The notes below the pieces were generated by a model that worked only from the letters and a program-made list of their open reading frames with translations, did no database searches and was not told the origin of the DNA. The position numbers were made by a program, and so were the translations under genes. Shown in pieces: positions 33,865 through 64,000 of a DNA stretch of 64,000 nt. The first letter of the stretch is position 1; each line of letters begins with the position of its first letter. Origin of the DNA: Candidatus Levyibacteriota bacterium (GTDB lineage Bacteria; Patescibacteriota; Microgenomatia; Levybacterales; UBA12049); contig PLZJ01000002.1 in assembly GCA_003152105.1 (NCBI GenBank), positions 469,682-533,681 on the forward strand, read 5' to 3'.

Positions 33865-33909
33865 AATAGTTCCTTTCTATGTTGTTAGTTGAATTTGAAA
33901 AAGATCTAT

Positions 33910-34233: not shown

Positions 34234-34628
34234 CTCACATTGATCGTACCATCTCCTACTCTGAAGAAATCAAATACGTCCAATCCAAACAAGCCAACAG
34301 AGAGCGAGACTTTACATCCGGTGGTTGGGCACAGATCTACAGTAGAACTACAATCTATTCCAGAGCAGTCAACGTGGATCGTGTTTTCTCCATCGTATGT
34401 TATTGTGTAGGTTGTATCGTACTTATCTTGCGAACTTATGACGAGTTGTCCACCAACTGGTACATTGGCAAGGTTATTACCAACAATTGAAACGCCGCTT
34501 GACCTTGGTTGACAACTTTCTAGCCAAACGACAAGTCCGACAATAAGAACGATAGTAGATACGACGAGTCCAAAGGCAGAAATATAATAACGCATGCATT
34601 TCCTTTTGTTCTTTTTAGTAAGCGACAT
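34203..34628 (-). CDS. Membrane-anchored Cys-rich hypothetical secreted protein (GC-rich islet 1, first gene)
   Basis: N-terminal TM; 8 Cys in ectodomain. Confidence 0.35.
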   Translation of the reverse strand: MSLTKKNKRKCMRYYISAFGLVVSTIVLIVGLVVWLESCQPRSSGVSIVGNNLANVPVGGQLVISSQDKYDTTYTITYDGENTIHVDCSGIDCSSTVDLCPTTGCKVSLSVGLFGLDVFDFFRVGDGTINVRWPDGYAIQT

Positions 34629-34654
34629 ACTACGTATAGCTTTATACGCACAAT

Positions 34655-34798
34655 ATCACTTACTAAATGTGTATTTTTCCGCAACTTGTGAATGTGCAAA
34701 TGAAAAAAAACAAGATATAAAATGCTTATTTCTATAACTGTCTTTTAGCCATGGGAGTATAGCAGAATAAAGAGAGCACTTCAAGTGCTATAGGATTA
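34655..34798 (-). promoter_or_regulatory. Conserved repeat element copy 1: minus-strand promoter (TTGAAG-17-TATACT, TG-extended) plus conserved ~120-nt 5' leader
   Basis: 15-mer TTGTGAATGTGCAAA and blocks GGAGTATAGCA.AAT / CAAGTGCTATAGGATTA shared with 49433-49563; ATCACTTACTAA shared with 63134-63145. Confidence 0.5.
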
Positions 34799-34902
34799 TT
34801 TGCGTTATTATTTTTCGTACAATAACTTTTTATCCTTATATTACTCTTATATGTATATTTATTACTTGACTTACCGAAACAATTACATTGTAATTAATAC
34901 AT

Positions 34903-36030: not shown

Positions 36031-36031
36031 T

Positions 36032-36590: not shown

Positions 36591-36670
36591 GGGGCTGAGT
36601 GATTTTGGATTAAGCTAAGAAGCTACGGCTGCTTACGCAGAAATAGATTTTTGCTTGGTCACTCAGCCCC
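36591..36670 (-). terminator. Hairpin (12-bp GC-rich stem GGGGCTGAGTGA / TCACTCAGCCCC) followed on minus strand by a T-rich run; candidate terminator of 36689..36973
   Basis: Perfect 12-bp inverted repeat with a ~56-nt loop; AATTCTTTTTTCC follows on the minus strand. Confidence 0.35.
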
Positions 36671-36688
36671 TACGTGTGTTACGAACGA

Positions 36689-36973
36689 TTAGAATTCAAA
36701 CTTGACAGATCCTTGTCGATCTTTGGTCGAAAAATGGACGCTGATATTCCCGAAATCGGCGTTGTAGCCATAAATCATCCAGGATTCTCCGCTGCCGTTT
36801 TCTCGATGGACTCCTTTGATATACATGATAAATCCGGTAACGTAAGTAGTTGTTTTAATGTCAAAATACATAAAACGCGTTCCAGACTCACCATCAAAAA
36901 GGTTGAGCATGAGATCGAACTTGGATGGGCCTGCAATGACGGGATACATCTGATCGGTCTGGATAAGAGACAT
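36689..36973 (-). CDS. Hypothetical protein (GC-rich islet 2)
   Basis: ORF. Confidence 0.35.
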   Translation of the reverse strand: MSLIQTDQMYPVIAGPSKFDLMLNLFDGESGTRFMYFDIKTTTYVTGFIMYIKGVHRENGSGESWMIYGYNADFGNISVHFSTKDRQGSVKFEF

Positions 36974-37091
36974 ACGTCCCTCCTTCTATGGCTAATCTGC
37001 GAAAACGGCAGAAGCGCTGTTGCACTGATATTCATCAGTACCACCTGAATTTCGATCCAGGAATTAAATGGTGCCCCTCAGTAGATTTCGA

Positions 37092-37472
37092 CTAGTTGCT
37101 ACTTGTCCACTGAATTTTGCCATCTCTTGTGATCACACAGGAAATGAATTCACCCTCGATCAGCAGTGCTGAGACTGATAGATCGTTTTGGGAAAGGTTA
37201 AAGCTTCGAGCACAAAGCGCAGCCCAGGTATGAGCTAACCAGGTTAACTGGTTCTCATAAAGACTGCGAAGCTGATTAAAGCCAGGGCTTCCCAAAAGCG
37301 GATTGACGAGCGTGACATTGTCGAGAAGAACCTTTCCTTGACCTTGAGGCAAATGAGCCCTGAAATCAGTGATGATCTCATCAGGCGCATGCTTCATATA
37401 GTCTTGGGCTTCAGGTCTCCACGAATCTCGGGCGATGAATCGATTGGTAAAACGAAACGAAGGTAATCGCAT
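37092..37472 (-). CDS. Hypothetical protein (GC-rich islet 2)
   Basis: ORF. Confidence 0.35.
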   Translation of the reverse strand: MRLPSFRFTNRFIARDSWRPEAQDYMKHAPDEIITDFRAHLPQGQGKVLLDNVTLVNPLLGSPGFNQLRSLYENQLTWLAHTWAALCARSFNLSQNDLSVSALLIEGEFISCVITRDGKIQWTSSN

Positions 37473-37707
37473 GGCAGCATCCTTTCTATAAAGTTTTATC
37501 TACTGAGGAGCATTCTAAACACAACATATGTTCACAATGCCACTCAGTAAATTAACACACGTACTATAAAAGAGCTACGAAAAGTTTGGATACGCAGCTT
37601 TTGCCTATCGTCCTTTTTCGTCTTGGAATTGTAGCAAAAAGAGGCACAACAGTCAACTACTACAGGATAAAAGAACCGTTACCACAAGGGGACAAGTAGT
37701 AGTAATA

Positions 37708-38898: not shown

Positions 38899-38984
38899 TG
38901 GTTATTTATTACATAGTAGTAATACAATGTCAAGCGTTGTAATAAATTAATTACAATAAGAGGACACTTTGCTATACTACAAGT

Positions 38985-39245
38985 ATGGAAGAGCTGGAAA
39001 AGCGAGTTGAAAAACTTGAACAAAGAAACAAGAGAGTAGAAATTGATAAAAAATGGGAAACTAGCTATACGAGACGAATCCTTATTATATTATTTACGTA
39101 TGTTACTATCTCAATCTACTTACAATTTATTGTTGGCATTAACCCATGGATAAATGCCATTGTTCCAACCGTTGGTTTTATACTCTCAACACAAACGCTC
39201 CCGTTTTTCAAACGTTTGTGGATAAAGCACATTCACCGTAAGTAA
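38985..39245 (+). CDS. Small membrane protein with N-terminal coiled coil
   Basis: ORF, 2 TMS. Confidence 0.3.
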   Translation: MEELEKRVEKLEQRNKRVEIDKKWETSYTRRILIILFTYVTISIYLQFIVGINPWINAIVPTVGFILSTQTLPFFKRLWIKHIHRK

Positions 39246-39326
39246 TTGGAAGTTTTTTCTGCTCTTTTATTCTTTATTGAGATACCTATGTAGTTTCCTT
39301 TATAATGAGAGTGAACATAACATTTC

Positions 39327-41144: not shown

Positions 41145-41158
41145 AGTAATGTAGCTAT

Positions 41159-41698
41159 TTAATTTTCTCCACTCACATCTATAATATTTCCTGTTGTTGC
41201 GTCATAAACTGTTTCACCATAGGTAAAAACAGGTATTTGTGTACCTGGAGGAAGTGGTACATTGTTTAATACAAATGGACCTTTTTCTTTAACAAACAGA
41301 ACAATATGATTATCATCAACGCCAACATCTTCTCCATTCATAAGTTGTGACGCGGTTTTTGCAGTAACAAATTGCATTGACTCAACTATCGGAACTTTTC
41401 CATTTACGCTGTCTCCTCCAACAAATGGATTGTGAAAAATGTACGTTTGCGCATCTGACAAAGAAAAGTTAACAGCATTACTGCTCAAGCTTGTATGAGT
41501 TGGTGCAATTGCAGGTAAGCCACTTTCAGGAACCCCAGCTGCTGCATGAGATTTTGTAAGCGGAAGCGTTGTCGTTTTAACAAATAACAAAATATACGTA
41601 AAAATACAACAACCGAATATGCCACTTACTATGACAACTAATTTTATTTTTTCGCTTTTTTGTATGGTTTTCATATTACTGAGTAATGCCTGTTTCAA
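41159..41698 (-). CDS. Membrane-anchored secreted hypothetical protein
   Basis: ORF, N-terminal TM. Confidence 0.35.
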   Translation of the reverse strand: MKQALLSNMKTIQKSEKIKLVVIVSGIFGCCIFTYILLFVKTTTLPLTKSHAAAGVPESGLPAIAPTHTSLSSNAVNFSLSDAQTYIFHNPFVGGDSVNGKVPIVESMQFVTAKTASQLMNGEDVGVDDNHIVLFVKEKGPFVLNNVPLPPGTQIPVFTYGETVYDATTGNIIDVSGEN

Positions 41699-42671
41699 TT
41701 ACGCCTCCGTGATTTGTTTGCGTTGGTTCTTTACCATTTTTCCATCGTACCCACGTTGGTGGATTTTTGGTATACATTATTTTTCCGTATTTTTTACTAT
41801 TTTCAATATACAACATCTCATTATTTTTTCTAAACATATTATTGCTAAAACTAACAAACTTTGACGTAGTAATGTTTCCTCCACCAACAAATTCTTCGCC
41901 AAGATCAATCTCGCTTCCTTCTTTTTTAATAAATGTTTCTAGATCGTTATTATTGGAATTACCTTTAAAATGAATATGATTTCCATCTATTTTTATGCGC
42001 CACGTATTTACATTTACATTATTGATATCTACCGTGATATCTTTTCCAAAATCATTTTTTGCAATTCTAGGACCTGGGTGAAAATGGTATCCGCTATGTT
42101 GACGAAAATCAGCAAAAAAAACATTGTTGTTAATAAGTACATGAGCTTTTGAAAAATGATTTAACGATTGATCACCAATCAGTGCCGCGTATCCAGAACC
42201 ATATCCAGCTTCTATCCAAAAATTTCCTTGTTTATCATTTATCCAGGTTTCCTGCGAAAAATGATTATTTTGATTTACTTTATATACAATAAGATTTTGC
42301 GGTGTGATTGTCGTTTTGTCTTCAAAAATTGGATACGTTGTTTGAAAATTTACTTCAGCATAACAGTGCTCCATAACACCTGGTGAATTAGGACAAAGAA
42401 TATATTTTTTTGTACTCTTTGTATCTTGAAGCGGTGTATCTTTTACAGAAAGAGAAGGGGTGATAGATGTAGCAGACGTTGTCGCACCAAGAACGCTTTG
42501 TGACTTGTTATAAACTTTAGCATATACCAGGAGTGCAAGTACGATAAAAATTGCACAAACAAAAAGCATTATGTAGAAAAGGACATCATGACTAAGTACA
42601 GAATATGTTAACAAATGTTTTTTCTTGTCAGATATATTGTTTTCCATACGCGTTGTACAATTATTATTCAT
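41676..42671 (-). CDS. Membrane-anchored secreted hypothetical protein (N/G-rich, possibly beta-rich fold)
   Basis: ORF, N-terminal TM. Confidence 0.35.
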   Translation of the reverse strand: MNNNCTTRMENNISDKKKHLLTYSVLSHDVLFYIMLFVCAIFIVLALLVYAKVYNKSQSVLGATTSATSITPSLSVKDTPLQDTKSTKKYILCPNSPGVMEHCYAEVNFQTTYPIFEDKTTITPQNLIVYKVNQNNHFSQETWINDKQGNFWIEAGYGSGYAALIGDQSLNHFSKAHVLINNNVFFADFRQHSGYHFHPGPRIAKNDFGKDITVDINNVNVNTWRIKIDGNHIHFKGNSNNNDLETFIKKEGSEIDLGEEFVGGGNITTSKFVSFSNNMFRKNNEMLYIENSKKYGKIMYTKNPPTWVRWKNGKEPTQTNHGGVIETGITQ

Positions 42672-42746
42672 TGTCCAAACAACCTTGTCAATGATTGGGT
42701 ATTACGAAAAAAAATGTATAACTCCTGTGTTATAATAATTTTTTAG

Positions 42747-43811
42747 TTGGGTGAAAAGATGTTAGTACCACTTGCTGAAAGGGAAGCCCCGTTAAATATT
42801 TATGCCGATTTAACTCCAAGTGAATATGGAGGTTGTGTTCAGGCTGCAAATATAAATACAAGAGCTGAAATGGTCGCTAATTTATCAGAATATTTTACGG
42901 AAAGTAGAATTGACCCTGCCAATGTTTGTTTTATCGTAACAGGAAGTGATGGGAAAAGTGAGCGACATGCAAAATCAATTACTGAAGTTGGTATATTAAC
43001 TAATGATCCCACTCTTTCTTTTATTGCAGAGGATTTTACCATGTGGTATAGCGGCGACCATATGGTAAAAAAAGATATTACAAGAACATTTGATGTCAAT
43101 CCACATACAGGTATACCAGATGTGAGACATGTGAGCACAGTTACTGGAAATCCATCAACACGAAGTGATACAGATGTGCTTTCTTATGCATTTGGAGATA
43201 GGAAACGTGTATATCCTGACAGAATTATTAACGCACAACATATATTTGGAAACGAGGAAATTCTACGCGATGCAAAAAGACAAGTATATGTTGAAGCGAC
43301 TACTCCGCCTACGGGAAAGCGTATTCGACAAGATATGAAAGTACAACTGAGAGATTATAAGCGATCATTAGCAGACGGAGGTGCGCAAGGGGTATATCAC
43401 CGCCAGCGAGCTTTTTCACTCGAGCCTGCGATGCAATATTATAGCGAAGACAAAAGTTATTATACGCTTGGATTTAAAATTCCAGCCCTAAGAACTATAC
43501 AGAGATCGCTTGATTTATACACTGTCGAATCAATTATGTCAGGAAAACTTACCATAGATGATGCGGTAACATTTCCAACAGATACTGTCGGGAGAATAGA
43601 CGCTTTGCAAAGAAGAGGACATATCCCGATTTACTCTGTAAATAGTAATGGACATATAGGGGAGGCGTATGATTGGTTTTTGCAGCAATATCACGCAGCA
43701 CAAAACGCAAATCATCGAAGCGGAAAAGCAGTTGCGATGCCATTTTCGCAGGAGGAATTTGTAACGCACCAACGAACTATCCTTTCTTTTTTACATGAGT
43801 TAAGAGGCTAA
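42747..43811 (+). CDS. Hypothetical cytoplasmic protein (354 aa)
   Basis: ORF; weak GS...D pattern (FIVTGSDGKSERHAKSITEV), not assignable. Confidence 0.35.
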   Translation: MGEKMLVPLAEREAPLNIYADLTPSEYGGCVQAANINTRAEMVANLSEYFTESRIDPANVCFIVTGSDGKSERHAKSITEVGILTNDPTLSFIAEDFTMWYSGDHMVKKDITRTFDVNPHTGIPDVRHVSTVTGNPSTRSDTDVLSYAFGDRKRVYPDRIINAQHIFGNEEILRDAKRQVYVEATTPPTGKRIRQDMKVQLRDYKRSLADGGAQGVYHRQRAFSLEPAMQYYSEDKSYYTLGFKIPALRTIQRSLDLYTVESIMSGKLTIDDAVTFPTDTVGRIDALQRRGHIPIYSVNSNGHIGEAYDWFLQQYHAAQNANHRSGKAVAMPFSQEEFVTHQRTILSFLHELRG

Positions 43812-43823
43812 CTTCTCTTTGTT

Positions 43824-45305
43824 TTATTTTGCCCTTAAACGCTCTAGATTTGCAGGATAAATAGTAATAATTTTGTATTTTGATCGGGAATTTGAAAACT
43901 CTAGAGGATTTTTGGTATCAGTATATTTTGCCGTAATATACCTTGTCCCTGCGTCAGAAAAAGCAGTGTGCCACGCATAATATGCCTTACCTTGATTATC
44001 CAAATACAGCTGTTTAATCACATCTCCTCGAAGATCAACTAGTGTTATTTTCCCATGCGTAACCGGTTGAGATGAAGAATCAGCTTTGATTGATAAGTAC
44101 ACAGTATAGCCGGTAAAAAGCGATGTTGTTGAGGTAGTAAGCGTTATTGTTGGACTTTTTTTAGCAGCCGGCCTTGTTGATTTAACTTGTAATTTTGGTG
44201 TTTGACTTACTTCTTGTATAAACTGCATGCCAACTGGTTTTAACACATTATTTGTTGTATAGAGTCCCCACGTTACATTCCCATCATTTCCTCCAAGTTT
44301 GTCATTCCATGCATACCAAATTGCAACAGGAATTTGCTCTTGTTCAAAATCAGTAAATAACTTGTGTAAATACGTTGCTTGCCACGATAGGTTTGGGTTT
44401 GCATTGTGTCCTATTTCAGTTACCCAAAGAGGCAATGGGTTTGAAGCTTTCTTATATGCTTGTAAAGAACTCGTTAAATTACCAGTGGACCCTTTCCAAA
44501 AAGATGGATCTGGTGTTTTACCATATGGATGTACACCAACTGCAGTTATTTGTTTTAGAGAATTCGGATACGTTGATCGAAGAACAGAGAATACTTGTTT
44601 TAGATAATTAGTATTTCCAGACGCTAAGCCTCCCATGATTATCTTAATGTGTGTATCATTATTTTCATTAAAGTTTGTAATAACAGCTGAAGACTTTGCC
44701 ACAAGTGTTGCATAAATATTCTCAGGAACTTTTGGACAATACCCTTTTTGACTTGGACAAATATCCTCCTCGTTCCAAAGTTCAATTGCATTTACCGAGT
44801 CGCTATTTGCAATCAGAAAGCTTTCAAGGTTTGGAATATAGTAATTTTCAATATATGCATTCCAAATCGAATTATTTCCAGATCCGAGTGGATTTTTGGA
44901 CAAATCAGTACTTGCAGGTTGTGTGCACGACTGATTATTTAAAATGGCAAGTACTTTTAGATTGCTTAATCCAAACTGTAGAGAGCTTTTACTAGGAAGT
45001 TGACAATCTCCGTAAACTACTGTTCTTATCCAGTCTGGCTTTAACTTTTGAAGTTGCCATTTGTTTGGATATGAATATGATTTTGGTCCTACGTTAACTT
45101 GTATGCCAAATTGTGTTGGATAAAGCGATACCGGTTGCGCTGCATGATTATAAAAATTTTGTGATGATTCAATGCCAAGAGGGATTGTTATCGTAATTAA
45201 AAGCAGTGCTAAAACAGTAATTTTTGTAGACGTTGGGATAGTTTCATAGAAGTTTTTTACTTTTTGAAATAACGTGTGTTTTTCATTTTGCTGTTTTCCT
45301 TCCAT
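43824..45305 (-). CDS. Clan GH-A glycoside hydrolase (GH5-like), membrane anchored, with C-terminal Ig-like domain
   Basis: Acid/base motif IELWNEE, H.Y (VGVHPYG), nucleophile WVTEIGH, WYAWN. Confidence 0.55.
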   Translation of the reverse strand: MEGKQQNEKHTLFQKVKNFYETIPTSTKITVLALLLITITIPLGIESSQNFYNHAAQPVSLYPTQFGIQVNVGPKSYSYPNKWQLQKLKPDWIRTVVYGDCQLPSKSSLQFGLSNLKVLAILNNQSCTQPASTDLSKNPLGSGNNSIWNAYIENYYIPNLESFLIANSDSVNAIELWNEEDICPSQKGYCPKVPENIYATLVAKSSAVITNFNENNDTHIKIIMGGLASGNTNYLKQVFSVLRSTYPNSLKQITAVGVHPYGKTPDPSFWKGSTGNLTSSLQAYKKASNPLPLWVTEIGHNANPNLSWQATYLHKLFTDFEQEQIPVAIWYAWNDKLGGNDGNVTWGLYTTNNVLKPVGMQFIQEVSQTPKLQVKSTRPAAKKSPTITLTTSTTSLFTGYTVYLSIKADSSSQPVTHGKITLVDLRGDVIKQLYLDNQGKAYYAWHTAFSDAGTRYITAKYTDTKNPLEFSNSRSKYKIITIYPANLERLRAK

Positions 45306-45399
45306 ACGTATATGTAGTATGAAAGTTTATTGTGTGGTGTGTCAAGTAACTGAAGATATGTTTAATAATAGTAAAATAAAATAATGCTATACTTTCTAT

Positions 45400-45810
45400 A
45401 TGCAGTATAAAAATTCACTTACCATGCAGGGAATTGCAATGCTTCTTATGCTGCTTTTGCAATATTTTCTTGGTATGTATACAAATCTCTATGTACAATT
45501 TCCAAATGGTCAACACGGAGATATTCTTTGGGAGTTTGCATGGAAGCAACTTCCCCTTGTGCTTCATATAATCCTTGGCATATTACTTATTGTTAATGCC
45601 ATTATTTTAATTATCCGTTCGTTCTTGCAAAAAAATAAAACGTGGATTAAGGCCTCTATCATTGGCTATGTTGGTATTCAAATCGCAGCACTTTCAGGAG
45701 CGGCATTTATTCCAACGCAAGTGGCAATATATTCATTTTCTATGTCTTTGTGTTTCCTCCTTGCGCTTCTTGCCTATGGATACGGCATTTATGCTTCGAA
45801 AGTAAAATGA
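45400..45810 (+). CDS. Hypothetical 4-TMS membrane protein
   Basis: ORF. Confidence 0.4.
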   Translation: MQYKNSLTMQGIAMLLMLLLQYFLGMYTNLYVQFPNGQHGDILWEFAWKQLPLVLHIILGILLIVNAIILIIRSFLQKNKTWIKASIIGYVGIQIAALSGAAFIPTQVAIYSFSMSLCFLLALLAYGYGIYASKVK

Positions 45811-46472
45811 AATTTATAGTTTCTGTTATCGTTATTGCATTTACCTCATTTATTGTTTATAAGGTTTGTTCAACATCAACAAAAACCAAAAAGAAGCAGA
45901 AATCAAAACACAAAAAAGCACTTATTGCCTCAATTGTGACTGCGCTTCTTTTGCTCGCTTTTCTTTTTTATGTTATGTATCAAGCGCAAACTGCCAAAGA
46001 TTTTCAGTGCAGTAATACACAAATTGTGTCTACAAAACTTCCGAGTAAACTGCAAACTGCACTGGATTATTTTTTGCTTGGAAATTATGCATATGATAGT
46101 GGAAACTGCCGACAAGCAATTGTCGACTATACAAAATCAATCCAAAAAAACCCAAATTATCCAGAAGTGTTTAATAACAGGGGATATACGTATATGCGAC
46201 TTAGAAATTATAAAGCCGCGCTTTTGGATCTAAACCGCGCAATTTTACTAAAACCAAATTATATTCAAGCGCTGATGAATAGAGGTGATATCTATAACTA
46301 TTATTATCAAATAAATAGACAAAAGGCTGTTTTAGATTATAAGAAAGTTATTTCACTTGGCGGAGGAAATAGCACAAGTGTATGTGGGCATTTGTTCTTG
46401 GCAGAAAACAACGGATGGCATATTGGTACGTTTTTACATCTTCCTTTTTTACTTTTTTCAAACTGCCGGTAA
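45807..46472 (+). CDS. TPR-repeat protein, N-terminal TM anchor, K-rich linker
   Basis: Tandem TPR motifs (A..Y..AI..NP.Y.....NRG); ATGA overlap with upstream gene. Confidence 0.6.
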   Translation: MKFIVSVIVIAFTSFIVYKVCSTSTKTKKKQKSKHKKALIASIVTALLLLAFLFYVMYQAQTAKDFQCSNTQIVSTKLPSKLQTALDYFLLGNYAYDSGNCRQAIVDYTKSIQKNPNYPEVFNNRGYTYMRLRNYKAALLDLNRAILLKPNYIQALMNRGDIYNYYYQINRQKAVLDYKKVISLGGGNSTSVCGHLFLAENNGWHIGTFLHLPFLLFSNCR

Positions 46473-46503
46473 TAACTCATGCATACCCTGTTATAATCTC
46501 TCT

Positions 46504-46908
46504 ATGAAAAAATTATATCCCTCAGACAAAATATATGTTGGCAAATCACATGTTGCAAAAAATGAACGTGGAGTTTTTGCAAAAAGAGCTATTAAAAAAA
46601 ATGAACTTATAGAAACGTGTCCGGTAATTGAAGTATCAAAACAAGATGCAAAAAACCTGCGAGAAAGTATTTTAATTACCTATTTTTATTATTTTGGGAA
46701 AAAGAAAGAACGATTCGTAACTGCTCTTGGATTTGGATCACTCTATAATCACACCTATTCACCTAATGCTGTGTATAGTGTTAACCATAAAACCCAAGTA
46801 CTTCAATTTAAAGCAATCAGAGATATTAAAAAAGATGAAGAAATAACCGTAAATTATATCTTTGCCTATCCTAATGCAAAAAGTCCTCTTTGGTTTGAAA
46901 ACGCTTAA
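46504..46908 (+). CDS. SET-domain protein (putative protein-lysine methyltransferase)
   Basis: RGVFAKRAIKKNELI, NHTYSPN (NHSCxPN-like), EEITVNY. Confidence 0.65.
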   Translation: MKKLYPSDKIYVGKSHVAKNERGVFAKRAIKKNELIETCPVIEVSKQDAKNLRESILITYFYYFGKKKERFVTALGFGSLYNHTYSPNAVYSVNHKTQVLQFKAIRDIKKDEEITVNYIFAYPNAKSPLWFENA

Positions 46909-46910
46909 AC

Positions 46911-47702
46911 CTATTTAGCTTTAGGAAATTGAAATGAATTTACCATTTGTGTAAATAGATTATCTTGGTTACTTGCGCTTTGAATATACATTTCATAGGT
47001 TGACCCATTGTAATAGGCATATGCTGCATCAGTTATTCCAGGAATAGACCCTTGTGTTAGAAGGAGTACGGGAACACCATTTACCGTAGTATCTGTTTGA
47101 TTTTTAAACGCTTTTGGACTTACGCTACTGTCGTTTGATGCATTTTCTAAAAAGGTCTTATAACTTTGATAAGAGCTAAAATTATTGTTTGCCTCAATTA
47201 AAATAGTAAGTTTTGAGCCTGTTAATACCACAACATGCACTGGATCCGCACTGTTTACCGTATAATCTGGCGACGTAAAATCATACCCATTTACTGATGA
47301 AACATCTTGATTGTTTGCTGATTCGACCCAGTTTGAAGGATAGTTAAGAGTAAAATGTAAGCTTGCATCACTATAATTTTTCCAATTAGTAGTTTGAGCA
47401 GAAGTTGAAGAAGCTGATGGGTTTTGTGCACCTGGTGGTTGTATAGTAACAGGAGGAATGCTTTTAGTTTTTACTATGGTTTGCACTGGATTTGAAGTAA
47501 TACTTAGTTGCCCTTGCGCTTTTCCAACCATATAGAAAATGACACCTGATACAAGTGCTGCAAGCAGACAACAGAGCAGAATTAGAATTACTCTTGGAAA
47601 ATGAAAATGCTTGGAAACAATTGGAGGTTCTTGCGTTGCAGGTTGTTGGGTAACAACAGGTTGCGGTTGTTGAACTGGCTGTTGTTGAACAGAATTATCC
47701 AT
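46911..47702 (-). CDS. Membrane-anchored surface protein with Q/P-rich N-terminal tail (paralogous anchor module to 8863..9552)
   Basis: HFPRVILILLCCLLAALVSGVIFYMVG matches HIPRILLVLFACLISGVLFGVAGYF. Confidence 0.4.
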   Translation of the reverse strand: MDNSVQQQPVQQPQPVVTQQPATQEPPIVSKHFHFPRVILILLCCLLAALVSGVIFYMVGKAQGQLSITSNPVQTIVKTKSIPPVTIQPPGAQNPSASSTSAQTTNWKNYSDASLHFTLNYPSNWVESANNQDVSSVNGYDFTSPDYTVNSADPVHVVVLTGSKLTILIEANNNFSSYQSYKTFLENASNDSSVSPKAFKNQTDTTVNGVPVLLLTQGSIPGITDAAYAYYNGSTYEMYIQSASNQDNLFTQMVNSFQFPKAK

Positions 47703-47897
47703 ATCTATACTATTCCATAGTTACCAGTATTAGTCAAGAAAAGCTCAAGGAGGTAGAGAATGTTAAAACAAGGATTCTAAGTTGTGGGTAATGTTTTAAG
47801 AATGGACGCGAAGGGTAGACTACAATATGTAGTAAAGGTCAATTGACCACTACCCAACGCGATGCGTCCACTCACAGAATGTGCTGCGGTTTTGCCG

Positions 47898-48266
47898 TTA
47901 GGCTTTTTGAAGAACCAGTCCCTTTACCCTTTCAGGTTCGAGAGTACTGCCTCCAGGTGGGAAGAAAACGCCACGTTCGCCGACGAATGCGACAGAAAAA
48001 GCGAGTCGATCGTCACTTATTACGTTGAAAGAGGTGACCATTAGGCTCGCAAAGTACCTGAGACGTTCTTCATCGGTGACAGCAAGCCAGTCAAAATCTT
48101 CTGTCGCCTCGGCGAGCCATTTGTAGGTTACGTAGAGGTACTGATTGTCCTCTTCGCCCTCGATCCATGCGCGCTCGACTTCTCCCCGAGTAACAGGTTC
48201 GCCAGAGCATTGTCTTTCGAGTTGTCCTCCTGCGTAGTGTGCGAGAACTTCGTTTGTGATTTTCAT
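47898..48266 (-). CDS. Hypothetical acidic protein (GC-rich islet 3, gene 3 of 3); start at internal Met with RBS
   Basis: ORF; GAAAGGAAAC RBS before MKITNEV. Confidence 0.3.
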   Translation of the reverse strand: MKITNEVLAHYAGGQLERQCSGEPVTRGEVERAWIEGEEDNQYLYVTYKWLAEATEDFDWLAVTDEERLRYFASLMVTSFNVISDDRLAFSVAFVGERGVFFPPGGSTLEPERVKGLVLQKA

Positions 48267-48297
48267 GTTGTTTCCTTTCGTATTCGACGTGTTGTTT

Positions 48298-48930
48298 TTA
48301 GTGTTGGTGTACAGCAAACGAATCAGGATCGAATGCTTCGACGGCTCGGTCGGGCGTGATGGTGACAGTCTTGGCTTGGGCATCTACAGCATTGATCGTG
48401 AAGATCTGTTGCTTGGTCTTGCCCAACTGGAAAGGTGGAGGCGTTGTTTGCTTTGGAAGAACCTCAGCTAGCATCGCCAGCACATATCCTTGGACGCTGA
48501 AAAGACTCGGAGTCAGGACGAAGGGAGCAAACGGATCTTCAAGAAACGCTATTCCTTCTCCTTCAATCTCAAGCTTAACGAGTGTCGAAGATTTGTCGCC
48601 TCCAAGCGGTTTGAGATAAATGGGATTTCCTTCGGAAACCACGAGTTGTCCCAGGTCTGAGGGCTCAAACTGAGTCCTTAAGTTTCCTGGACGAATAACT
48701 CGTTCGTTTCCGCATGAACAGCGTTTTTCGGAACCTTCCCGAACTGCATCCCAGCGAGGATCAGTAATTCCACTTCTTCCTCCTGGAAGTTCGACGTAGA
48801 CGTTCTGGGTCAAGTCTGCTCTCTGCTCAACGAGCAAATTGCAGGCCGCCAGATACAGTTCTTCGTCGAATTGAGTTCGGTCTGTCTGAACTCCACGAAC
48901 GTACGAAATTGCGTCTTGGACTGTTTCCAC
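48298..48930 (-). CDS. Hypothetical protein (GC-rich islet 3, gene 2)
   Basis: ORF. Confidence 0.35.
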   Translation of the reverse strand: METVQDAISYVRGVQTDRTQFDEELYLAACNLLVEQRADLTQNVYVELPGGRSGITDPRWDAVREGSEKRCSCGNERVIRPGNLRTQFEPSDLGQLVVSEGNPIYLKPLGGDKSSTLVKLEIEGEGIAFLEDPFAPFVLTPSLFSVQGYVLAMLAEVLPKQTTPPPFQLGKTKQQIFTINAVDAQAKTVTITPDRAVEAFDPDSFAVHQH

Positions 48931-48982
48931 TCTATTTCTCCTTTAAGATTCTGCTTGTTTCCCAGGTAAGGAAAGAGCAGGT

Positions 48983-49333
48983 TTATGCCTGTGAGTGAGC
49001 CTGTTCTGCGTGTCTTCTGATCGCAACTGCGATGCATGATCCTCTGGCAGCGAGACCTTCTCGGACCGCCGTCTGCATTGGTTGATCGTAGCCCCTTATA
49101 GTGAAGAGAGCATTGAACTTGGTATACAAGTCCTCAAATCTCTTCGTTAGGGCTCGCATCTTCAACGCCGTATCGTCGTCCACATGAGCAACGAGCTCTT
49201 GGGAGACTGGTTGGTCGGACGGAAGCAGAATTGCCAGTTGTGCCTCCACTTGGTCTAGCTCCACAAGGATTTCTCTGCCTTGTTGGCAAACCTCGTCGAA
49301 GTCATAACCGAGCTGTAGGTATTGTAGCTTCAT
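48983..49333 (-). CDS. Hypothetical protein (GC-rich islet 3, gene 1)
   Basis: ORF. Confidence 0.35.
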   Translation of the reverse strand: MKLQYLQLGYDFDEVCQQGREILVELDQVEAQLAILLPSDQPVSQELVAHVDDDTALKMRALTKRFEDLYTKFNALFTIRGYDQPMQTAVREGLAARGSCIAVAIRRHAEQAHSQA

Positions 49334-49432
49334 GAGTACTCCTTTTTATTGTTATTTGTTCTTTCCTTAACCTGGGAAAGAAAATAGGCATAAATACCCA
49401 CTTTCTTCCTCAGGCTAATTGGGAACAATGTA

Positions 49433-49563
49433 CCGCAACAAATTGTGAATGTGCAAAAATAACTAAAATTAGCACGAAATAAACTGCTTATGTCTAAATA
49501 TGCTAATTTTTAGTTAAAGGAGTATAGCAAAATTAAAGATCTCTAACAAGTGCTATAGGATTA
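49433..49563 (-). promoter_or_regulatory. Conserved repeat element copy 2: minus-strand promoter TTGTTA-17-TATACT (TG-extended) plus conserved leader with 13-bp-stem hairpin
   Basis: Shares ~80% identity over ~120 bp with 34679-34798; leader contains ACTAAAAATTAGCA ... TGCTAATTTTAGT inverted repeat. Confidence 0.5.
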
Positions 49564-49633
49564 GATTTAAGTTAAATGAAGCTTGCAGTAGTGGAAGATG
49601 TTAGAACCTTATTTTACTAAAGTTTTATTTTAA

Positions 49634-50896: not shown

Positions 50897-51406
50897 TTAG
50901 ATCCATCGTCTCACTTTATTTTTGTAATCTACCCATTGCTTGCCAAATTGATGCTCAAGTTGTGCTTCTTCTCTTTTAATCATTAAATTAATAAGTGGTA
51001 AATGCAAAAAAGTAATAAGTATGCCAAAAATTGTACCAAGCAGTAGAGAAGCTCCTAGAAAAATAAAAAAGTTTCCTCCAAGATAAAGAGGATTTCTTGA
51101 ATATCTAAATGGACCTTGTGTAATAAGATGTTTTTGGGGTTTTAAGACAATGACTTTCATTTGCGCGCGGTAAAAGTAGTATGTTGCCCACACTCTAATA
51201 CTATATCCAATAACTAAAAATAGGATACCAATTGCAAAGAACAAGAATGAGTTAAATGGGGTTATTTTAAAGAGTAAATCTATTAGTGAACCAATAAATG
51301 CAATGATGAAACCAAAAAGTATTGCTGGTATATTATTAATTGCACTTTTTATAAGTATCACATTAAAAGTATACCATCTACTTACCATTGTTTTGTGGTT
51401 AAACAA
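50897..51406 (-). CDS. Isoprenylcysteine carboxyl methyltransferase (ICMT/PEMT)-family membrane methyltransferase
   Basis: RYSRNPLYLGGNFFIFLGASLLLG ... EEAQLEHQFGKQWVDY. Confidence 0.65.
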   Translation of the reverse strand: MFNHKTMVSRWYTFNVILIKSAINNIPAILFGFIIAFIGSLIDLLFKITPFNSFLFFAIGILFLVIGYSIRVWATYYFYRAQMKVIVLKPQKHLITQGPFRYSRNPLYLGGNFFIFLGASLLLGTIFGILITFLHLPLINLMIKREEAQLEHQFGKQWVDYKNKVRRWI

Positions 51407-61432: not shown

Positions 61433-61591
61433 TAGGATAATTATAACAAAATAAAAAACTAAGATAGGTATGGTGGAAATTGAGTAAGTAGAGTGATAAT
61501 GCTTGAGTGCATAAATCGCCTCCTTTTCAAAGATTTTACTCTTTTTCCACCAAACCCTGGCATCTTATTCTTCTTATAGATCCCTCCTATA

Positions 61592-62116
61592 CTAGTTTCT
61601 AGACATTGCATCTGGTGGTCGAAGATTGAGACCTTCGCTGACCAAATACAGAAATGTATAAAGATCGTAATCTTTTCCAATTTCTGCCGAGAACCTTTTG
61701 GGGTTCTTGCAATAAGGTCCAAAGCACCAGTTTCTAGGAAAACCTTCAAAGTAAATTGGCGAAATTCTTTCTTCTCTGTCGATGAGTTGGAAGAAGTTGT
61801 CCGGCACAGGCCTGTTAGACTTGATACTCAACTTCCAGTTATAGAAGTTATACCGAAGTCGTACTTCTATTCCTCCAAAGGCAAGACTGTATACGGGAAG
61901 GAGAACCGATTTTGATCGATGTGTTCCAACGACTCGTACTGGATTTGCCTTCCAATCTTCAAAGGTCACCGAGAATAATCTTGAAAGATCATCTCGAACA
62001 AAAAGAAATTGATGTTCGAATCCCTTGTGCCAAAGAAGATCATTGTTTGGTTGATGTTCGTTTGCCCAATCTTGCAGTTGTGGAGAGTCTTCTCTTTTCT
62101 TTGTGACAGAGGTCAT
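61592..62116 (-). CDS. Hypothetical protein (GC-rich islet 4, gene 3)
   Basis: ORF. Confidence 0.3.
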   Translation of the reverse strand: MTSVTKKREDSPQLQDWANEHQPNNDLLWHKGFEHQFLFVRDDLSRLFSVTFEDWKANPVRVVGTHRSKSVLLPVYSLAFGGIEVRLRYNFYNWKLSIKSNRPVPDNFFQLIDREERISPIYFEGFPRNWCFGPYCKNPKRFSAEIGKDYDLYTFLYLVSEGLNLRPPDAMSRN

Positions 62117-62160: not shown

Positions 62161-62568
62161 CTAACGTTCGAACTGAAACCGATCGAATTGCATAGATACC
62201 ATTGTGGAAAAAGGAAGGAACGCTTTGAACTGGGGAAGAGAAAATTCCAAATAGTCACTTTCCTTGTCTTTTCCCGTTTCAATCTCGATCCAACACCCTT
62301 GGTAAATATCGCCGTACAAGAGTACTAGTTTTGCACGGTATAACAGATTGTCGTCATTGTTCCTGAATTGAAGACGAATGTGATCTTCGTCGCCACCAGG
62401 AAGCACCAGAACGTGCATGCGGTGAGTGAATATGTGTTTTTCTAACTCATTCGCCAGTTCTTCTCGTAGAGATCCTGTTCTGGCATGTGAAAGCCACTTT
62501 GCAAAATCTTCTGGTTTGATCGGATTCCACTTTTCCAAAGTACTGGTTGCAACTGCTGTTTTTGGCAT
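62161..62568 (-). CDS. Hypothetical protein (GC-rich islet 4, gene 2)
   Basis: ORF. Confidence 0.3.
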   Translation of the reverse strand: MPKTAVATSTLEKWNPIKPEDFAKWLSHARTGSLREELANELEKHIFTHRMHVLVLPGGDEDHIRLQFRNNDDNLLYRAKLVLLYGDIYQGCWIEIETGKDKESDYLEFSLPQFKAFLPFSTMVSMQFDRFQFER

Positions 62569-62600: not shown

Positions 62601-63059
62601 TTACAGTCTATCTAGCGTACGTTCGTCACAGTCGATAACCATTCCTTCTCCGTAATATAAATCTGGAGAGCGCCAAATCAAGCCGAATTCGCGTTTTCCG
62701 AAGTAGGAAGGAAATTCCATTCCATACTCCATGTGAGTGACGAGAATAAGGATGTCACCTTCATCTGCTTTATCTTTAACAAGCCCAAGAGCTGCAGGAA
62801 GATTTTCGGGATGGTTGTCTTCAGCCCAGAGTACCTCATGTTGCTCGAAGTCGTCTTCTGTCCAGCCGAACATTTCGCACAGTACTTTGGCGCTGTCAAC
62901 GGCTCGAGGAGCAGTAGAGGAGAGAAGGAAGAAAGTATCTCTATCTCCGGCAAGTGCTTCAATTTTTTCACCTGCTTGCTCCATTTGCTCTCGTCCCTCT
63001 TCGCTTATCCGCCTATCGTAACCGTGTTTTCCGTGACGCAGGATAACCAATTTTTTCAT
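62601..63059 (-). CDS. Histidine phosphatase family protein (SixA/phosphoglycerate-mutase-like), islet 4 gene 1
   Basis: RHG motif VILRHGK at N-terminus; ILILVTHMEYG (His) later. Confidence 0.55.
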   Translation of the reverse strand: MKKLVILRHGKHGYDRRISEEGREQMEQAGEKIEALAGDRDTFFLLSSTAPRAVDSAKVLCEMFGWTEDDFEQHEVLWAEDNHPENLPAALGLVKDKADEGDILILVTHMEYGMEFPSYFGKREFGLIWRSPDLYYGEGMVIDCDERTLDRL

Positions 63060-63133
63060 TGTTTTTCGTTCTCCGTTTTGTTGAGTTCACTAAGTAAGTG
63101 ACACGCTGAGTACCAACATATGATACACAATGC

Positions 63134-63290
63134 ATCACTTACTAATGTTTATTCTATAAGAAGTTATTAAGGTGCAAAATGCTCGAAACACCACAATACA
63201 ATGCTAGTATGTATGTTTGTTTTTGAGCTTGTGGATTATATAACAAGACGGACTATATTGCGAACTGCAAATAAATAATATAAAGGTTAC
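63134..63290 (-). promoter_or_regulatory. Conserved repeat element copy 3 (more diverged), upstream of islet-4 operon
   Basis: ATCACTTACTAA(A)TGT, GTGCAAA and AATGCT blocks in the same order and spacing as copy 1; candidate minus-strand promoter TTCGCA-18-TATAAT. Confidence 0.4.
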
Positions 63291-63862
63291 CAGATATAGG
63301 GTATAAGTGCTTTTGTTTTGTTCATATAATCTACATATTCTTTTGGAAATTTTTGACGCATATGTTTTTCTTCTATTTTCACACTATATATGAAATAGAA
63401 GAGCATAATGGCAAGTGGTATAAGCCAAAATAAACCAATCGTTACCGTTGAACCTAACATAGCAAGGAGAAGACCTGAATATATAGGATGTCTGATATAG
63501 GCATAGGGACCTGATTGTATGAGTTCTGGCTTTTCTCTTTGCGACATTGGCATTCCCCAATTACTGCCAAGATAATATCTTGCCCAAATAGCTATTCCAA
63601 TACCAGCTGCGCAAAGCAACACACCCAAAAAGGATATGAATGGATTAAAAAACAAGTTTGAAGTCTGTTTATGCCACATAAATTGACTAAACAGTGGTGT
63701 GCGGATTTCAAGTATCACAAGTAGTATTATAACTATGCGAACAAATCTTTCTGCTAACCAATTACCACCTTTAATGCTTTTCTTAACATGAAAACTAGAA
63801 ATAAACCAATACAATATAAAAATAACCCACAAAAAAGGTATTATTTCGACGAATATAGGCAT
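63287..63862 (-). CDS. ICMT/PEMT-family membrane methyltransferase (second paralog)
   Basis: YAYIRHPIYSGLLLAMLGSTVTIG ... EEKHMRQKFPKEYVDY. Confidence 0.65.
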   Translation of the reverse strand: MPIFVEIIPFLWVIFILYWFISSFHVKKSIKGGNWLAERFVRIVIILLVILEIRTPLFSQFMWHKQTSNLFFNPFISFLGVLLCAAGIGIAIWARYYLGSNWGMPMSQREKPELIQSGPYAYIRHPIYSGLLLAMLGSTVTIGLFWLIPLAIMLFYFIYSVKIEEKHMRQKFPKEYVDYMNKTKALIPYIW

Positions 63863-64000
63863 GTGATTATTGTAGCACGGTTAGTATGCCGGTGTATTAA
63901 AACAAATTACTTCAAAATATATGAAAAGTAGAGAAAATTTTATATGGAAAAGTCACACGTATTAGTAACAAAATTTCTTACCTTGTGGGAGTAATGCCAG

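Follow-up and report, generated by a model that had tools for sequence, protein, structure and literature searches.

Near the end of the 64,000-nucleotide stretch of DNA that we analysed (the window), three genes on the minus strand form a putative operon (operon 3), with gaps of 32 and 44 nt between them, and the leader element considered here lies directly upstream. The initial annotation had placed the element before this operon, and all three of its reading frames are indeed called genes. The first gene (62601..63059) encodes a 152-aa protein of the histidine-phosphatase superfamily. Its description as SixA-like holds as a weak match: the protein has the sequence LRHGKHG at residues 7-13 (RHG at 8-10), matches Pfam His_Phos_1 (PF00300) with E=3e-4 and 20.9 bits, just under the cut-off of 21.7, and has five homologues among 5.8 billion proteins, three of which carry PF00300 (40-43% identity), with one of these three named SixA by its source. 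The second gene (62161..62568; 135 aa) is led by a Shine-Dalgarno sequence and matched no family. The third (61592..62116; 174 aa) belongs to an uncharacterised family with 835 representative homologues; its AF2 model has a pLDDT of 95, and no solved structure in the PDB matched it in sequence or in fold. The operon ends (61445..61560, minus strand) in a predicted long-range hairpin, GGUGGAAA...UUUCCACC; a U-run comes next, and then the leaderless promoter of the next gene. Compared to a sample of 22 genes from elsewhere in the window, the three genes are rich in G+C (0.41-0.46, relative to a mean of 0.36), as had been claimed relative to the flanks, and in GC3 (0.38-0.43, relative to 0.19-0.30).

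The region upstream of this operon (63055-63295, minus strand) is the third copy of a module that is also found at 34595-34830 (copy 1) and 49333-49580 (copy 2). We built an nhmmer profile from copies 1 and 2 alone, scanned the whole window with it on both strands (128 kb searched), and found that copy 3 was the top non-self match (E=1e-5, 63055-63244), followed by a fourth site at 37590-37670 (E=0.0067), with all other matches at E>=0.3. In pairwise comparison, copies 1 and 3 gave a Smith-Waterman score of 41, which none of 1000 dinucleotide shuffles reached (19.4±2.6). This alignment pairs 63126-63240 with 34649-34761 (83 matches, 26 mismatches and 10 gap columns) and amounts to 70% identity over 115 nt, in agreement with the earlier estimate of 65-70%. 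The matching strings reported with that estimate were likewise located (atcacttactaatgt at 63134-63148, atcacttactaaatgt at 34655-34670 and ggtgcaaaatgct at 63171-63183, together with the aatgct blocks), but the homology runs farther than the 63134-63220 assigned to it. Copy 2 and copy 3 showed no significant pairwise similarity in the same test of Smith-Waterman scores with shuffles, while copies 3 and 4 shared a local score of 31 in the hairpin apex (0 of 500 shuffles). Identity among the four copies is 70-84%. Thus, the proposed third copy is a true, diverged member of the family and, on the evidence of their sequences, the four copies are related by descent.

Each module is about 230 bp in length (about 215-250 bp) and consists of a promoter and a folded 5' untranslated leader, with the parts in the same order in all copies: an upstream box, the -35 and -10 elements, a first hairpin (SL1), a U-rich UUUGCAC box (clear in copies 1-3, but not in copy 4), a second hairpin (SL2), an A-rich spacer, a Shine-Dalgarno sequence and the start codon. 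All four lie on the minus strand. In copy 1 (34595..34830), the -10 ends at 34756, SL2 occupies 34614-34667 and the ATG is at 34595, which gives a leader of 160 nt from the end of the -10 to the ATG, upstream of ORFs at 34203-34595, 33910-34140 and 33559-33864. In copy 2 (49333..49580), the corresponding positions are 49521, 49367-49418 and 49333 (187 nt), and the ORFs that follow (48983-49333, 48298-48930 and 47898-48266) have a G+C of 0.50. The leader of copy 3 is 175 nt. Copy 4 (37472..37690), which was absent from the earlier list, has a -10 ending at 37628, SL2 at 37498-37552 and its ATG at 37472 (155 nt), followed by ORFs at 37092-37472 and 36689-36973; we include it based on its nhmmer match to the profile of copies 1 and 2, its folds and its local score with copy 3. 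The end of SL2 is 21-45 nt from the start codon in all four copies, and in three of the four cases a co-directional gene stops about 20 nt before the module starts, and no other terminator intervenes. No further copies were found in the 10-kb flanks on either side of the window; the four in these 84 kb all have the same position and orientation relative to the downstream Shine-Dalgarno sequence and ATG. A leader peptide or small ORF was rejected, since reading of the sequences revealed no start codon or ORF conserved among the copies on either strand.

The promoter of copy 3 (63235..63264, minus strand), as identified in a promoter scan, comprises the -35 TTCGCA (63264-63259), an 18-nt spacer and the -10 TATAAT (63240-63235). 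The same pair of elements and spacing had been proposed at 63255-63285; the promoter is present, but about 20 nt from there. TTCGCA and TATAAT align column for column with the -35 and -10 elements of copy 1 (TTGAAG/TGCTATACT), copy 2 (TTGTTA/TGCTATACT) and copy 4 (TTGACT/TGCTACAAT), and in an alternative register the -10 of copy 3 would be TGtTATATA at 63245-63237, which matches TGCTATACT of the other copies. The upstream box, ATCCTATAGCAC, is exact in copies 1, 2 and 4. The corresponding region of copy 3 (63265..63295, minus strand), GGTAAC...TTATTTATTTGCAG, is in the four-way alignment a diverged counterpart of TAAC(G)-N7-9-ATCCTATAG; copy 3 has TTATTTATTTGCAG in place of the exact ATCCTATAGCAC box, and the flanking GGTAAC alone is kept. 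Since it has lost both the ATCCTATAG box and a clear TGn, the copy 3 promoter is probably the weakest of the four.

The -10 elements also bear on where transcription would begin. The motif TGCTAYAMT occurs 11 times compared to 2.9 expected and is evidently the genome's own -10 consensus, and in six of seven other TGCTATAMT promoters the ATG lies exactly 6 nt past the -10. This offset in leaderless genes sets the predicted +1 at the first base of SL1 in copies 2, 3 and 4, such that the transcript of copy 3 is predicted to start with the G at 63228 and those of copies 2 and 4 near 49514 and 37621, respectively; the predicted 5' end of copy 1 is near 34749. Co-transcription of the three genes of operon 3, like the transcription start itself, is a prediction.

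Both hairpins are found in each leader. In copy 3, the A/U-rich SL1 (63181..63228, minus strand; GCUCAAAAACA...UGGUGUUUCGAGC) has the predicted +1 as its first base and folds with -12.9 kcal/mol (2 of 200 shuffles); SL1 was modestly better than shuffles in copies 1 and 4 (17 of 200 and 16 of 200), and a consensus fold recovered its apical 6-bp helix alone, as the MAFFT alignment mis-registers the 3' arms. It is followed by a single-stranded box (63164..63180, minus strand), AUUUUGCACCUUAAUAA, which the alignments identify as the counterpart of (A/U)UUUGCACAUUCACAA in copies 1 and 2. SL2 of copy 3 (63088..63147, minus strand) is a 25-bp RNA hairpin of -27.9 to -28.5 kcal/mol (z=-4.2, 0 of 200 shuffles), and the A-rich spacer beyond it (63060..63087, minus strand) contains the Shine-Dalgarno sequence GGAG (63074-63071), 11 nt before the ATG at 63059. 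Across the copies, SL2 has 23-25 bp, -27 to -30 kcal/mol and z of -4.2 to -5.7 (0 of 200 shuffles per copy), and these hairpins are among the most stable in the window.

Two further properties of SL2 indicate that it was maintained as RNA. First, SL2 is stable on the sense strand only, with -27 to -29 kcal/mol on this strand compared to -14 to -17 on the antisense strand (-27.9 and -13.9, respectively, in copy 3, which has five G·U pairs). Because it folds well on the mRNA strand only, with 17 G·U pairs (3-5 per copy) compared to two, SL2 probably acts as RNA. Second, the paired positions covary: 95.8% of cells are paired among the four copies, and 10 of 18 pairs have double changes, neither of which was reached in 500 shuffles, although these counts overstate independence since there are just four copies, related by descent, of which copies 1 and 3 share the outer SL2 stem. 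The covariation score was 0.75, relative to 0.39 (0 of 500 shuffles), and slid controls were 29-57% paired. Thus, the leader element is a complete promoter with a 155-187 nt structured 5' untranslated region that contains a covarying, strand-specific RNA hairpin.

The modules are found exclusively before GC3-rich, Shine-Dalgarno-led operons, which differ sharply from the resident genes. The residents are AT-rich, mostly leaderless and without Shine-Dalgarno sequences. In contrast, GC3 is 0.34-0.54 in the cassette genes, compared to 0.19-0.30 in the sample of 22 others (Mann-Whitney P=2e-6), and a Shine-Dalgarno sequence precedes 10 of 10 called cassette genes, compared to 5 of 57 others (Fisher P=1e-8). 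The four cassettes hold 10 of the 13 ORFs with GC3 >=0.32. Nearly every GC3-high gene of the window, and the majority of the Shine-Dalgarno-led ones, are thus marked by one of these modules; the suggestion that a third cassette is tied to the same element is upheld, and the tie is stronger than had been supposed. The leaders themselves are host-like in G+C (0.30-0.38), relative to 0.42-0.50 in the cargo. We ruled out paralogy of the cargo, as the 11 cassette proteins have no significant mutual similarity (best E=0.12). Ten of these proteins, that is, all but the 94-aa product of the second gene of cassette 4, had no match in PADLOC or PHROGs, one sub-threshold match in NCBIfam and, in Pfam, the weak His_Phos_1 match only. 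The four operons are best read as compositionally foreign and horizontally acquired. An empty-site comparison is impossible because the databases hold no closely related genome (the closest relative of the flanking ICMT gene is just 52% identical).

Searches beyond the window yielded no known relative of the leader as a whole. Rfam 15 gave no match at the gathering score anywhere in the window and none at E<=5 for copy 3, and for copy 1 gave three chance-level matches only, to eukaryotic snoRNA and miRNA families; on these scans, the reading as a known RNA family was rejected. A strict two-block leader pattern (TGCTATACTCC...TTTGCACATTCACAA) had no match in 185,579 GTDB species genomes, and thus a leader of the copy 1/2 type was not found outside this lineage, where recurrence is limited to the promoter box and the architecture. 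The TAAC/ATCCTATAG box recurs in three Patescibacteria loci (L012, L021 and L022) and is conserved across genera, and in other Patescibacteria MAGs (L020, L022 and L013) the same promoter box lies ahead of leaders that are long and structured and of GC3-outlier genes that match nothing in Pfam. Homologues of the 210-aa cassette-2 protein in L029 and L031 likewise have a 22-28 bp hairpin before the Shine-Dalgarno sequence. A phage origin of the promoter was rejected, since the pattern is absent from IMG/VR and three 17-mer matches there are at chance level. We also note that analogous or homologous cargo genes elsewhere adjoin tRNA-Lys (with its 3' half duplicated), tRNA-Asn, tmRNA or a tyrosine recombinase, or lie in a tRNA-Trp island.

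We propose that the module is a re-used, host-type expression and RNA-control unit that drives horizontally acquired genes, a reading to which we assign a probability of roughly 0.7. Its firm parts are the homology of the copies, the conservation and covariation of SL2, the RNA-strand specificity of this hairpin and the exclusive tie of the modules to GC3-high, Shine-Dalgarno-led operons. RNA polymerase would start at a host-type promoter, composed of the TAAC/ATCCTATAG box, a -35 and a TGnTATAMT-like -10, and the transcript, beginning about 7 nt past the -10, would fold at once into the A/U-rich, 5'-terminal SL1. It would then pass through the UUUGCAC box (clear in copies 1-3) and form the 23-25 bp SL2, after which ribosomes would load at the Shine-Dalgarno sequence in the unstructured A-rich spacer. 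In this way the copy 3 module would transcribe and post-transcriptionally control the SixA-like three-gene operon, and the paralogous modules would do likewise for three other, unrelated operons. Since these foreign operons depend on Shine-Dalgarno sequences in a mostly leaderless genome, the module would be a re-used, host-adapted expression adaptor. With respect to the biochemical role of the hairpins, we infer that SL1 might shield the 5' end from 5'-end-dependent decay and that SL2 might be a site for double-stranded RNA processing or protein binding, for instance by RNase III; the upstream box may bind a regulator.

We considered that the leader might instead be an attenuator or silencer, in which SL1 with its U-run, or SL2, acts as a terminator or roadblock that stops read-through from upstream or holds the operon off until relieved by a trans-acting factor, such as a protein on the UUUGCAC or ATCCTATAG box. 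The 5' arm of SL1 is A-rich and its 3' arm U-rich, followed by U-rich sequence (U8 in copy 1, UAUUUUUG in copy 2 and AUUUUG in copy 3), and L031 has a canonical hairpin and then U7 at the equivalent position. Moreover, the start of three modules so soon after a co-directional gene, with no terminator between, would leave room for such a function, and the cross-genus conservation of the upstream box suits a regulator site. However, the SL1 stems are weak and A/U-rich, the U-run of copy 4 is apart from the stem, a terminator scan reports none in the copy 3 leader, and SL2 has no U-tract in any copy. Furthermore, a terminator at +1 leaves no space for an upstream sensing or anti-terminator domain. 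We therefore regard attenuation as an unlikely, if serious, alternative to an expression and RNA-control unit.

The foreign composition of the cargo also raised the idea of an element that acts as DNA. The hairpins would then be sites of recombination or transposition, whether integron attC-like, MITE/REP-like or ends of the IS200/IS605 type, and mobile cassettes would have the modules as their ends. The location of related cargo elsewhere beside tRNA or tmRNA genes or a tyrosine recombinase would fit, as would a hairpin structure that is kept while its sequence varies, as in attC sites. However, each SL2 has 3-5 G·U pairs and about half its stability is lost on the other strand, which argues against a duplex or cruciform, though not against a site that is read, like attC, as single-stranded sense DNA. 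In the 10-kb flanks and the two surveyed parts of the window (about 1-10.6 kb and 25-64 kb), none of the called genes encodes a recombinase, transposase or integron integrase, and the window has no tRNA or tmRNA genes. Attachment-site-like or direct-repeat boundaries were rejected as well: the sole significant similarity shared among cassette 3' ends is the promoter of a neighbouring gene, and none of these ends resembles SL2 (all z<1). In addition, the modules are host-like in composition with a host-type -10, and the hairpin lies inside the 5' untranslated region, downstream of the promoter. Such a role thus seems quite improbable.

We give even less credence to a separate gene for a small RNA, which would span about 150 nt between +1 and the end of SL2 and merely happen to lie upstream of the operons. 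A strong promoter and two conserved hairpins, with SL2 usable as a 3' end, are consistent with such a gene, as is the conservation of the copies although the downstream genes are unrelated. Against it are the fixed orientation and spacing from SL2 to the start codon in all four copies, the lack of a U-tract behind SL2 and of a separate operon promoter between SL2 and the ATG, and the need of Shine-Dalgarno-led genes for a leader, the resident promoters being leaderless. Finally, chance similarity of A/T-rich intergenic DNA, which the composition of the region and the non-significant copy 2/copy 3 comparison might suggest, is rejected with near certainty by the shuffles, the profile scan, the copy 3/copy 4 local score and the identical order of promoter, SL1, box, SL2 and Shine-Dalgarno sequence in all copies.

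Bacteria of the candidate phyla radiation either lack cultures or are difficult to grow, and their expression control and domestication of foreign DNA are almost unstudied. Here, two separate expression styles occur in one genome, that of the leaderless residents and that of the foreign operons, nearly all without Pfam matches, under one promoter-leader. If this pattern extends across the genome, the module could serve to recognise, by sequence, genes that were acquired recently or are under special regulation; it would be a new structured RNA motif whose hairpins can be tested, and would supply a ready-made expression cassette to genetic work on Patescibacteria. It would also be a clean natural case of promoter and leader re-use as a route to expression of horizontally acquired genes. 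A bolder and distinctly doubtful extension is that the TAAC/ATCCTATAG promoter and long-hairpin leader form the conserved 5' part of a Patescibacteria-wide system that captures or shuttles small GC-rich operons and makes them expressible in leaderless-type hosts; promoter-leader-cargo units might then move between genomes, landing by tRNA or tmRNA genes or recombining via leader homology, with SL2 licensing or silencing the cargo.

The module can be compared to several known systems. Like integron attC sites, it conserves structure rather than sequence and accompanies small accessory-gene cassettes. In contrast, an attC site is found 3' in a promoterless cassette, in arrays next to intI, and acts as single-stranded DNA, whereas SL2 lies in a 5' untranslated region behind its own promoter and in dispersed copies, with no integrase among the surveyed genes and with cassette 3' ends that share nothing with it. 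The modules fit neither integron cassettes with attC (R''/R' GTTRRRY boxes, a position 3' of a promoterless ORF and an adjacent intI tyrosine recombinase) nor MITE or REP elements (many near-identical copies, terminal inverted repeats and any orientation relative to genes); the inverted repeat here is internal and RNA-strand-specific. Similar to the cis-regulatory leaders and riboswitches of Rfam, the module places a conserved, structured 5' untranslated region before the ribosome binding site, but unlike ligand sensors it has two hairpins only, with no multi-helix junction or pocket, and matches no Rfam 15 family.

Stabilising stem-loops at the 5' terminus are known from E. coli ompA and from the B. 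subtilis ermC and aprE leaders, and leader hairpins processed by RNase III from T7 early RNAs and the pnp and rnc leaders; a near-perfect duplex of 23-25 bp is of the size class recognised by bacterial RNase III. SL1 resembles the former in that it begins at the predicted first transcribed nucleotide, and SL2 resembles the latter as a near-perfect 23-25 bp duplex placed after the 5' end and ahead of the ribosome binding site. In sequence, the module is unrelated to all of these leaders, and its 5' end is a predicted one. Phage morons sit between resident genes as autonomous units of promoter, gene and terminator whose G+C deviates. The cassettes likewise are small and self-contained, each having its own promoter and a terminal hairpin, and differ from their neighbours in G+C. 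Unlike morons, they are not inside a prophage, have no PHROG matches and use a promoter pattern absent from IMG/VR, and one promoter-leader of host composition serves all units.

The module also parallels the re-used ('mobile') promoters described by Nijveen, Matus-Garcia and van Passel ('Promoter reuse in prokaryotes', PMC3575422), in which closely similar upstream regions within a genome precede genes that are not homologous. The same pattern is seen here, with about 230 bp common to four operons whose proteins are mutually dissimilar, although the identity of 70-84% is below the conservative thresholds used for the re-used promoter groups in that study. The module also differs from re-used promoters in that the unit includes a long, structured 5' untranslated region with a covarying hairpin, and in that it is tied specifically to foreign, Shine-Dalgarno-led genes in a largely leaderless genome.

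The initial annotation placed a third, diverged copy of the leader element at 63060-63290 (c3; here 63055-63295), upstream of the operon led by a SixA-like phosphatase gene, and the sequence strings it quoted are found where it located them. We compared c1 with c3 (34595-34850 with 63060-63310) and, as the annotation had suggested, set the result against 1000 dinucleotide-preserving shuffles: the local alignment score was 41, which no shuffle reached (0/1000; 19.4 ± 2.6). The identity, put at about 65-70%, measured 70% over 63126-63240 (83 matches, 26 mismatches, 10 gap columns). Read on the minus strand, the c1 (34595-34830), c2 (49333-49580) and c3 regions align across promoter and leader. 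When both strands of the window were scanned with a profile built from c1 and c2 only, and hence blind to c3, the top non-self match was c3 (63055-63244; E=1e-5), the second was a fourth site (37590-37670; E=0.0067), and all remaining positions had E of at least 0.3. The fourth site marks a module (c4; 37472-37690, minus strand) absent from the first list, which lies upstream of ORFs 37092-37472 and 36689-36973 and has a ATCCTGTAG box, TTGACT-17-TACAAT, the A/U-rich hairpin SL1 and a 24-bp version of the long hairpin SL2. Similarity between c3 and c4 is significant and located in the SL2 apex; that between c2 and c3, taken pairwise alone, is not significant. The 10-kb flanks on either side of the window hold no additional leader copies. 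We conclude that c3 is a real copy of the leader element upstream of the putative phosphatase operon, which supports and extends the first interpretation. ICMT/PEMT-family paralogues lie directly before c3 (63287-63862, minus strand) and one gene before c2 (50897-51388, minus strand), an arrangement that may go back to an old segmental duplication or be coincidental.

All four copies are on the minus strand, with an identical order of parts. An upstream box, TAAC(G)-N7-9-ATCCTATAG, is matched exactly by c1, c2 and c4 and only in degenerate form by c3; then come a -35 element, a spacer of 17-18 nt, a -10 element (TGCTATACT or TGCTACAAT; in c3 TATAAT, with an alternative register TGtTATATA), and a leader of 155-187 nt followed by a Shine-Dalgarno site and ATG. 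The candidate c3 promoter of the initial annotation exists, but its position was off by about 20 nt (TTCGCA is at 63264-63259 and TATAAT at 63240-63235). The motif TGCTAYAMT occurs 11 times in the window compared to 2.9 expected, and is therefore taken as the genome's own -10 consensus. A start codon follows exactly 6 nt after TGCTATAMT at 6 of its 7 other, non-module occurrences; sites of this motif at resident genes include 7091-7099(-), 25175-25183(+), 31041-31049(+) and 33405-33413(-), and further 38970-38978(+), 45385-45393(+) and 63869-63877(-). The 6-nt spacing therefore points to leaderless mRNAs, and it puts the predicted transcription start at the 7th nucleotide after the -10 element. 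Moreover, 36 of the 67 called genes look leaderless, their start codon lying 5-12 nt after a -10-like hexamer, and resident genes across the window are mostly leaderless and without a Shine-Dalgarno site.

The predicted start coincides with the first paired base of SL1 in c2, c3 and c4, and a U-rich box, (A/U)UUUGCAC, follows SL1 in c1-c3. SL1 folding energies were clearly better than those of shuffles in c2 and c3 and just modestly better in c1 and c4, and the consensus fold recovers only the apical helix; SL1 is thus less secure as a conserved structure than SL2. Each SL2 has 23-25 pairs (-27 to -30 kcal/mol; z -4.2 to -5.7; 0/200 shuffles in each copy), and all four rank among the strongest hairpins of the 64-kb window. 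The stem sequence differs among c1/c3, c2 and c4, but pairing is nonetheless maintained. In an alignment of just four related sequences, with an outer stem common to c1 and c3, both sides have changed in 10 of 18 consensus pairs, 95.8% of cells are paired (80.6 ± 3.3% in shuffles; 0/500), and the covariation score is 0.75 compared to 0.39 (0/500 shuffles); in a control, sliding the 3' partner by 1-3 columns reduced pairing to 29-57%. Folded in the mRNA sense, SL2 reaches -27 to -29 kcal/mol and contains 3-5 G·U pairs per copy (17 in total), whereas the complementary strand reaches only -14 to -17 kcal/mol and its G·U pairs number 2 over all copies. Such an asymmetry is not expected of a duplex or cruciform DNA site. 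We conclude that SL2 probably acts as RNA.

The three ORFs downstream of c3 (62601-63059, 62161-62568 and 61592-62116, minus strand) are called genes with gaps of 32 and 44 nt and, as first noted, have higher G+C than their surroundings. In the 11 ORFs that follow the four modules, G+C is 0.41-0.51 and GC3 0.34-0.54, compared to 0.32-0.39 and 0.19-0.30 in a sample of 22 other window genes, such that the two samples do not overlap (Mann-Whitney p=2e-6 for GC3). Among 79 non-overlapping ORFs of at least 70 aa, GC3 is at least 0.32 in 13, and 10 of these 13 are inside the four cassettes. A Shine-Dalgarno motif precedes 10/10 called cassette genes, compared to 5/57 others (Fisher p=1e-8). Since the leaders are host-like (G+C 0.30-0.38) and their cargo is richer (0.42-0.50), a compositional break falls near the ribosome binding site. 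Elsewhere, a 56-aa KGG-repeat ORF (22852-23022, plus strand; general-stress-protein-like) is GC3-high and Shine-Dalgarno-led as in the cassettes; leader homology is absent. Its Shine-Dalgarno site (AAAGGAGGTGAAGGAGA) is very strong, and it has a terminator hairpin (23029-23083).

The cassette proteins are unrelated to one another. PADLOC and PHROGs gave no matches (ten proteins scanned per search), NCBIfam gave one sub-threshold match, and the sole Pfam match was a weak His_Phos_1 in the first gene of operon 3, whose putative SixA-like product carries the RHG motif; only five relatives of it turned up among 5.8 billion proteins. The third protein of this operon (174 aa; 61592-62116, minus strand) belongs to an uncharacterised family of 835 representative homologues with invariant W17, V62, H66, S70, P74, V75 and G125; its AF2 model is confident (pLDDT 95), and no PDB structure resembles it by sequence or fold. 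Every cassette ends in a large hairpin. The long-range hairpin closing operon 3 contains a 17-codon mini-ORF (MHSSIITLLTQFPPYLS; 61459-61512, minus strand) with an AAGGAGG Shine-Dalgarno site. The non-coding tail of cassette 4 (36264-36700, minus strand; about 430 nt) is unusually structured (-148 kcal/mol), with a perfect 18-bp hairpin (36337-36392) and a hairpin plus U-run (~36590-36680); it has no Rfam match and could be terminators or an unknown RNA. Across the 16 kb holding cassettes 1, 4 and 2 (33500-49600), one TPR and one SET-domain protein are the only called gene products with a Pfam match, and this part of the genome may be variable.

The window belongs to a 1.14-Mb metagenomic scaffold. 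Among 185,579 species genomes, a strict two-block leader pattern had no match, and we did not find the c1/c2 leader sequence itself outside this lineage. A degenerate promoter pattern (ATCCTRTAGYASTTG-N17-23-TGCTAYAMT), for which our own rough estimate, made without a tool, is about one chance match per collection, matched six metagenome loci and six genome loci (three of the latter in Patescibacteria MAGs) and none in IMG/VR. All 12 loci carry TGCTATAAT or TGCTATACT; a TTGAC-like -35 is present in most of them, although the pattern left the -35 free. Several of these promoters are upstream of long hairpin-rich leaders and GC3-outlier genes without Pfam matches. GC3 is 0.67 compared to about 0.31 at L022, 0.61 compared to 0.45-0.53 at L013, and 0.45 compared to 0.27-0.39 at L020, which lies directly after a tmRNA gene (779-1198) and whose leader opens with an SL1 at +1 and runs through a long SL2 and an A-rich spacer to a Shine-Dalgarno site. 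Homologues of the 210-aa cassette 2 protein (about 50% identity) lie directly after a tRNA-Lys with a duplicated 3' half (L029; 4704-4855) and directly after a tRNA-Asn (L031; 4668-4740, promoter CCTATA-TTGACT); both are GC-richer than their own loci, each behind a 22-28 bp hairpin and a Shine-Dalgarno site. Of the SixA-like homologues, one adjoins a tyrosine recombinase (L010; 1023-1838), and others occur in an island next to tRNA-Trp (L008; 4834-4908) that also holds DUF2726 and NERD genes. In the latter, a perfect 21-bp hairpin (GCAATACATTCTCATTAGCCA...TGGCTAATGAGAATGTATTGC; 5940-5990) precedes the Shine-Dalgarno site, ~35 nt before the SixA-like start, a position that echoes SL2 in an unrelated genome. 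Sites adjacent to tRNA or tmRNA genes or to recombinases are classic contexts of island insertion. These cases show that the promoter type and long-hairpin leader recur before foreign-looking genes in other members of the group.

The best-supported reading is that the module is a re-used host-type promoter and leader serving acquired operons that depend on Shine-Dalgarno sites, in a genome whose genes are largely leaderless. It would drive these horizontally acquired operons and control them post-transcriptionally: SL1 may protect the 5' terminus, SL2 may be where double-stranded RNA is processed or bound by a protein, ribosomes may land on the A-rich spacer, and a regulator may bind the upstream box. 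These roles are drawn from what is generally known of how bacterial mRNA decays and is processed. In the main rival reading, compatible with the same data, SL1 together with its U-run, or SL2, is an attenuator or insulator that holds the acquired genes conditionally silent. Much less likely, the copies are DNA-level recombination sites, against which stand the strand asymmetry of SL2 (for a duplex or cruciform site), the lack of any annotated recombinase, transposase or phage gene among called genes in the surveyed regions (~1-10.6 kb and 25-64 kb of the window, and the 10-kb flanks), and the unlike cassette 3' ends, which share nothing beyond the next gene's promoter and have no sequence in common with SL2. 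An attC-like, MITE-like or IS-end identity is unsupported, given no recombinase or transposase among the called genes of those surveyed regions, no tRNA gene within the window, no flank copies and unlike 3' ends. The flanking ICMT gene shares only 52% identity with its closest relative, which made an empty-site comparison impossible. That the leader is an independent small RNA is likewise much less likely, as is chance similarity among the copies, given the shuffled c1-c3 scores and the profile E-value of c3.

The module offers a concrete way, open to experiment, of studying how Patescibacteria express and acquire genes. The module belongs to no Rfam family. It resembles phage morons as an autonomous unit with deviant G+C, but differs from them in having no phage context. 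Among described phenomena, promoter re-use in prokaryotes (PMC3575422) comes closest; to this the module adds a 5'UTR that is long, structured and equipped with a covarying RNA hairpin, a tie to compositionally foreign cargo and a contrast with the leaderless resident gene set.
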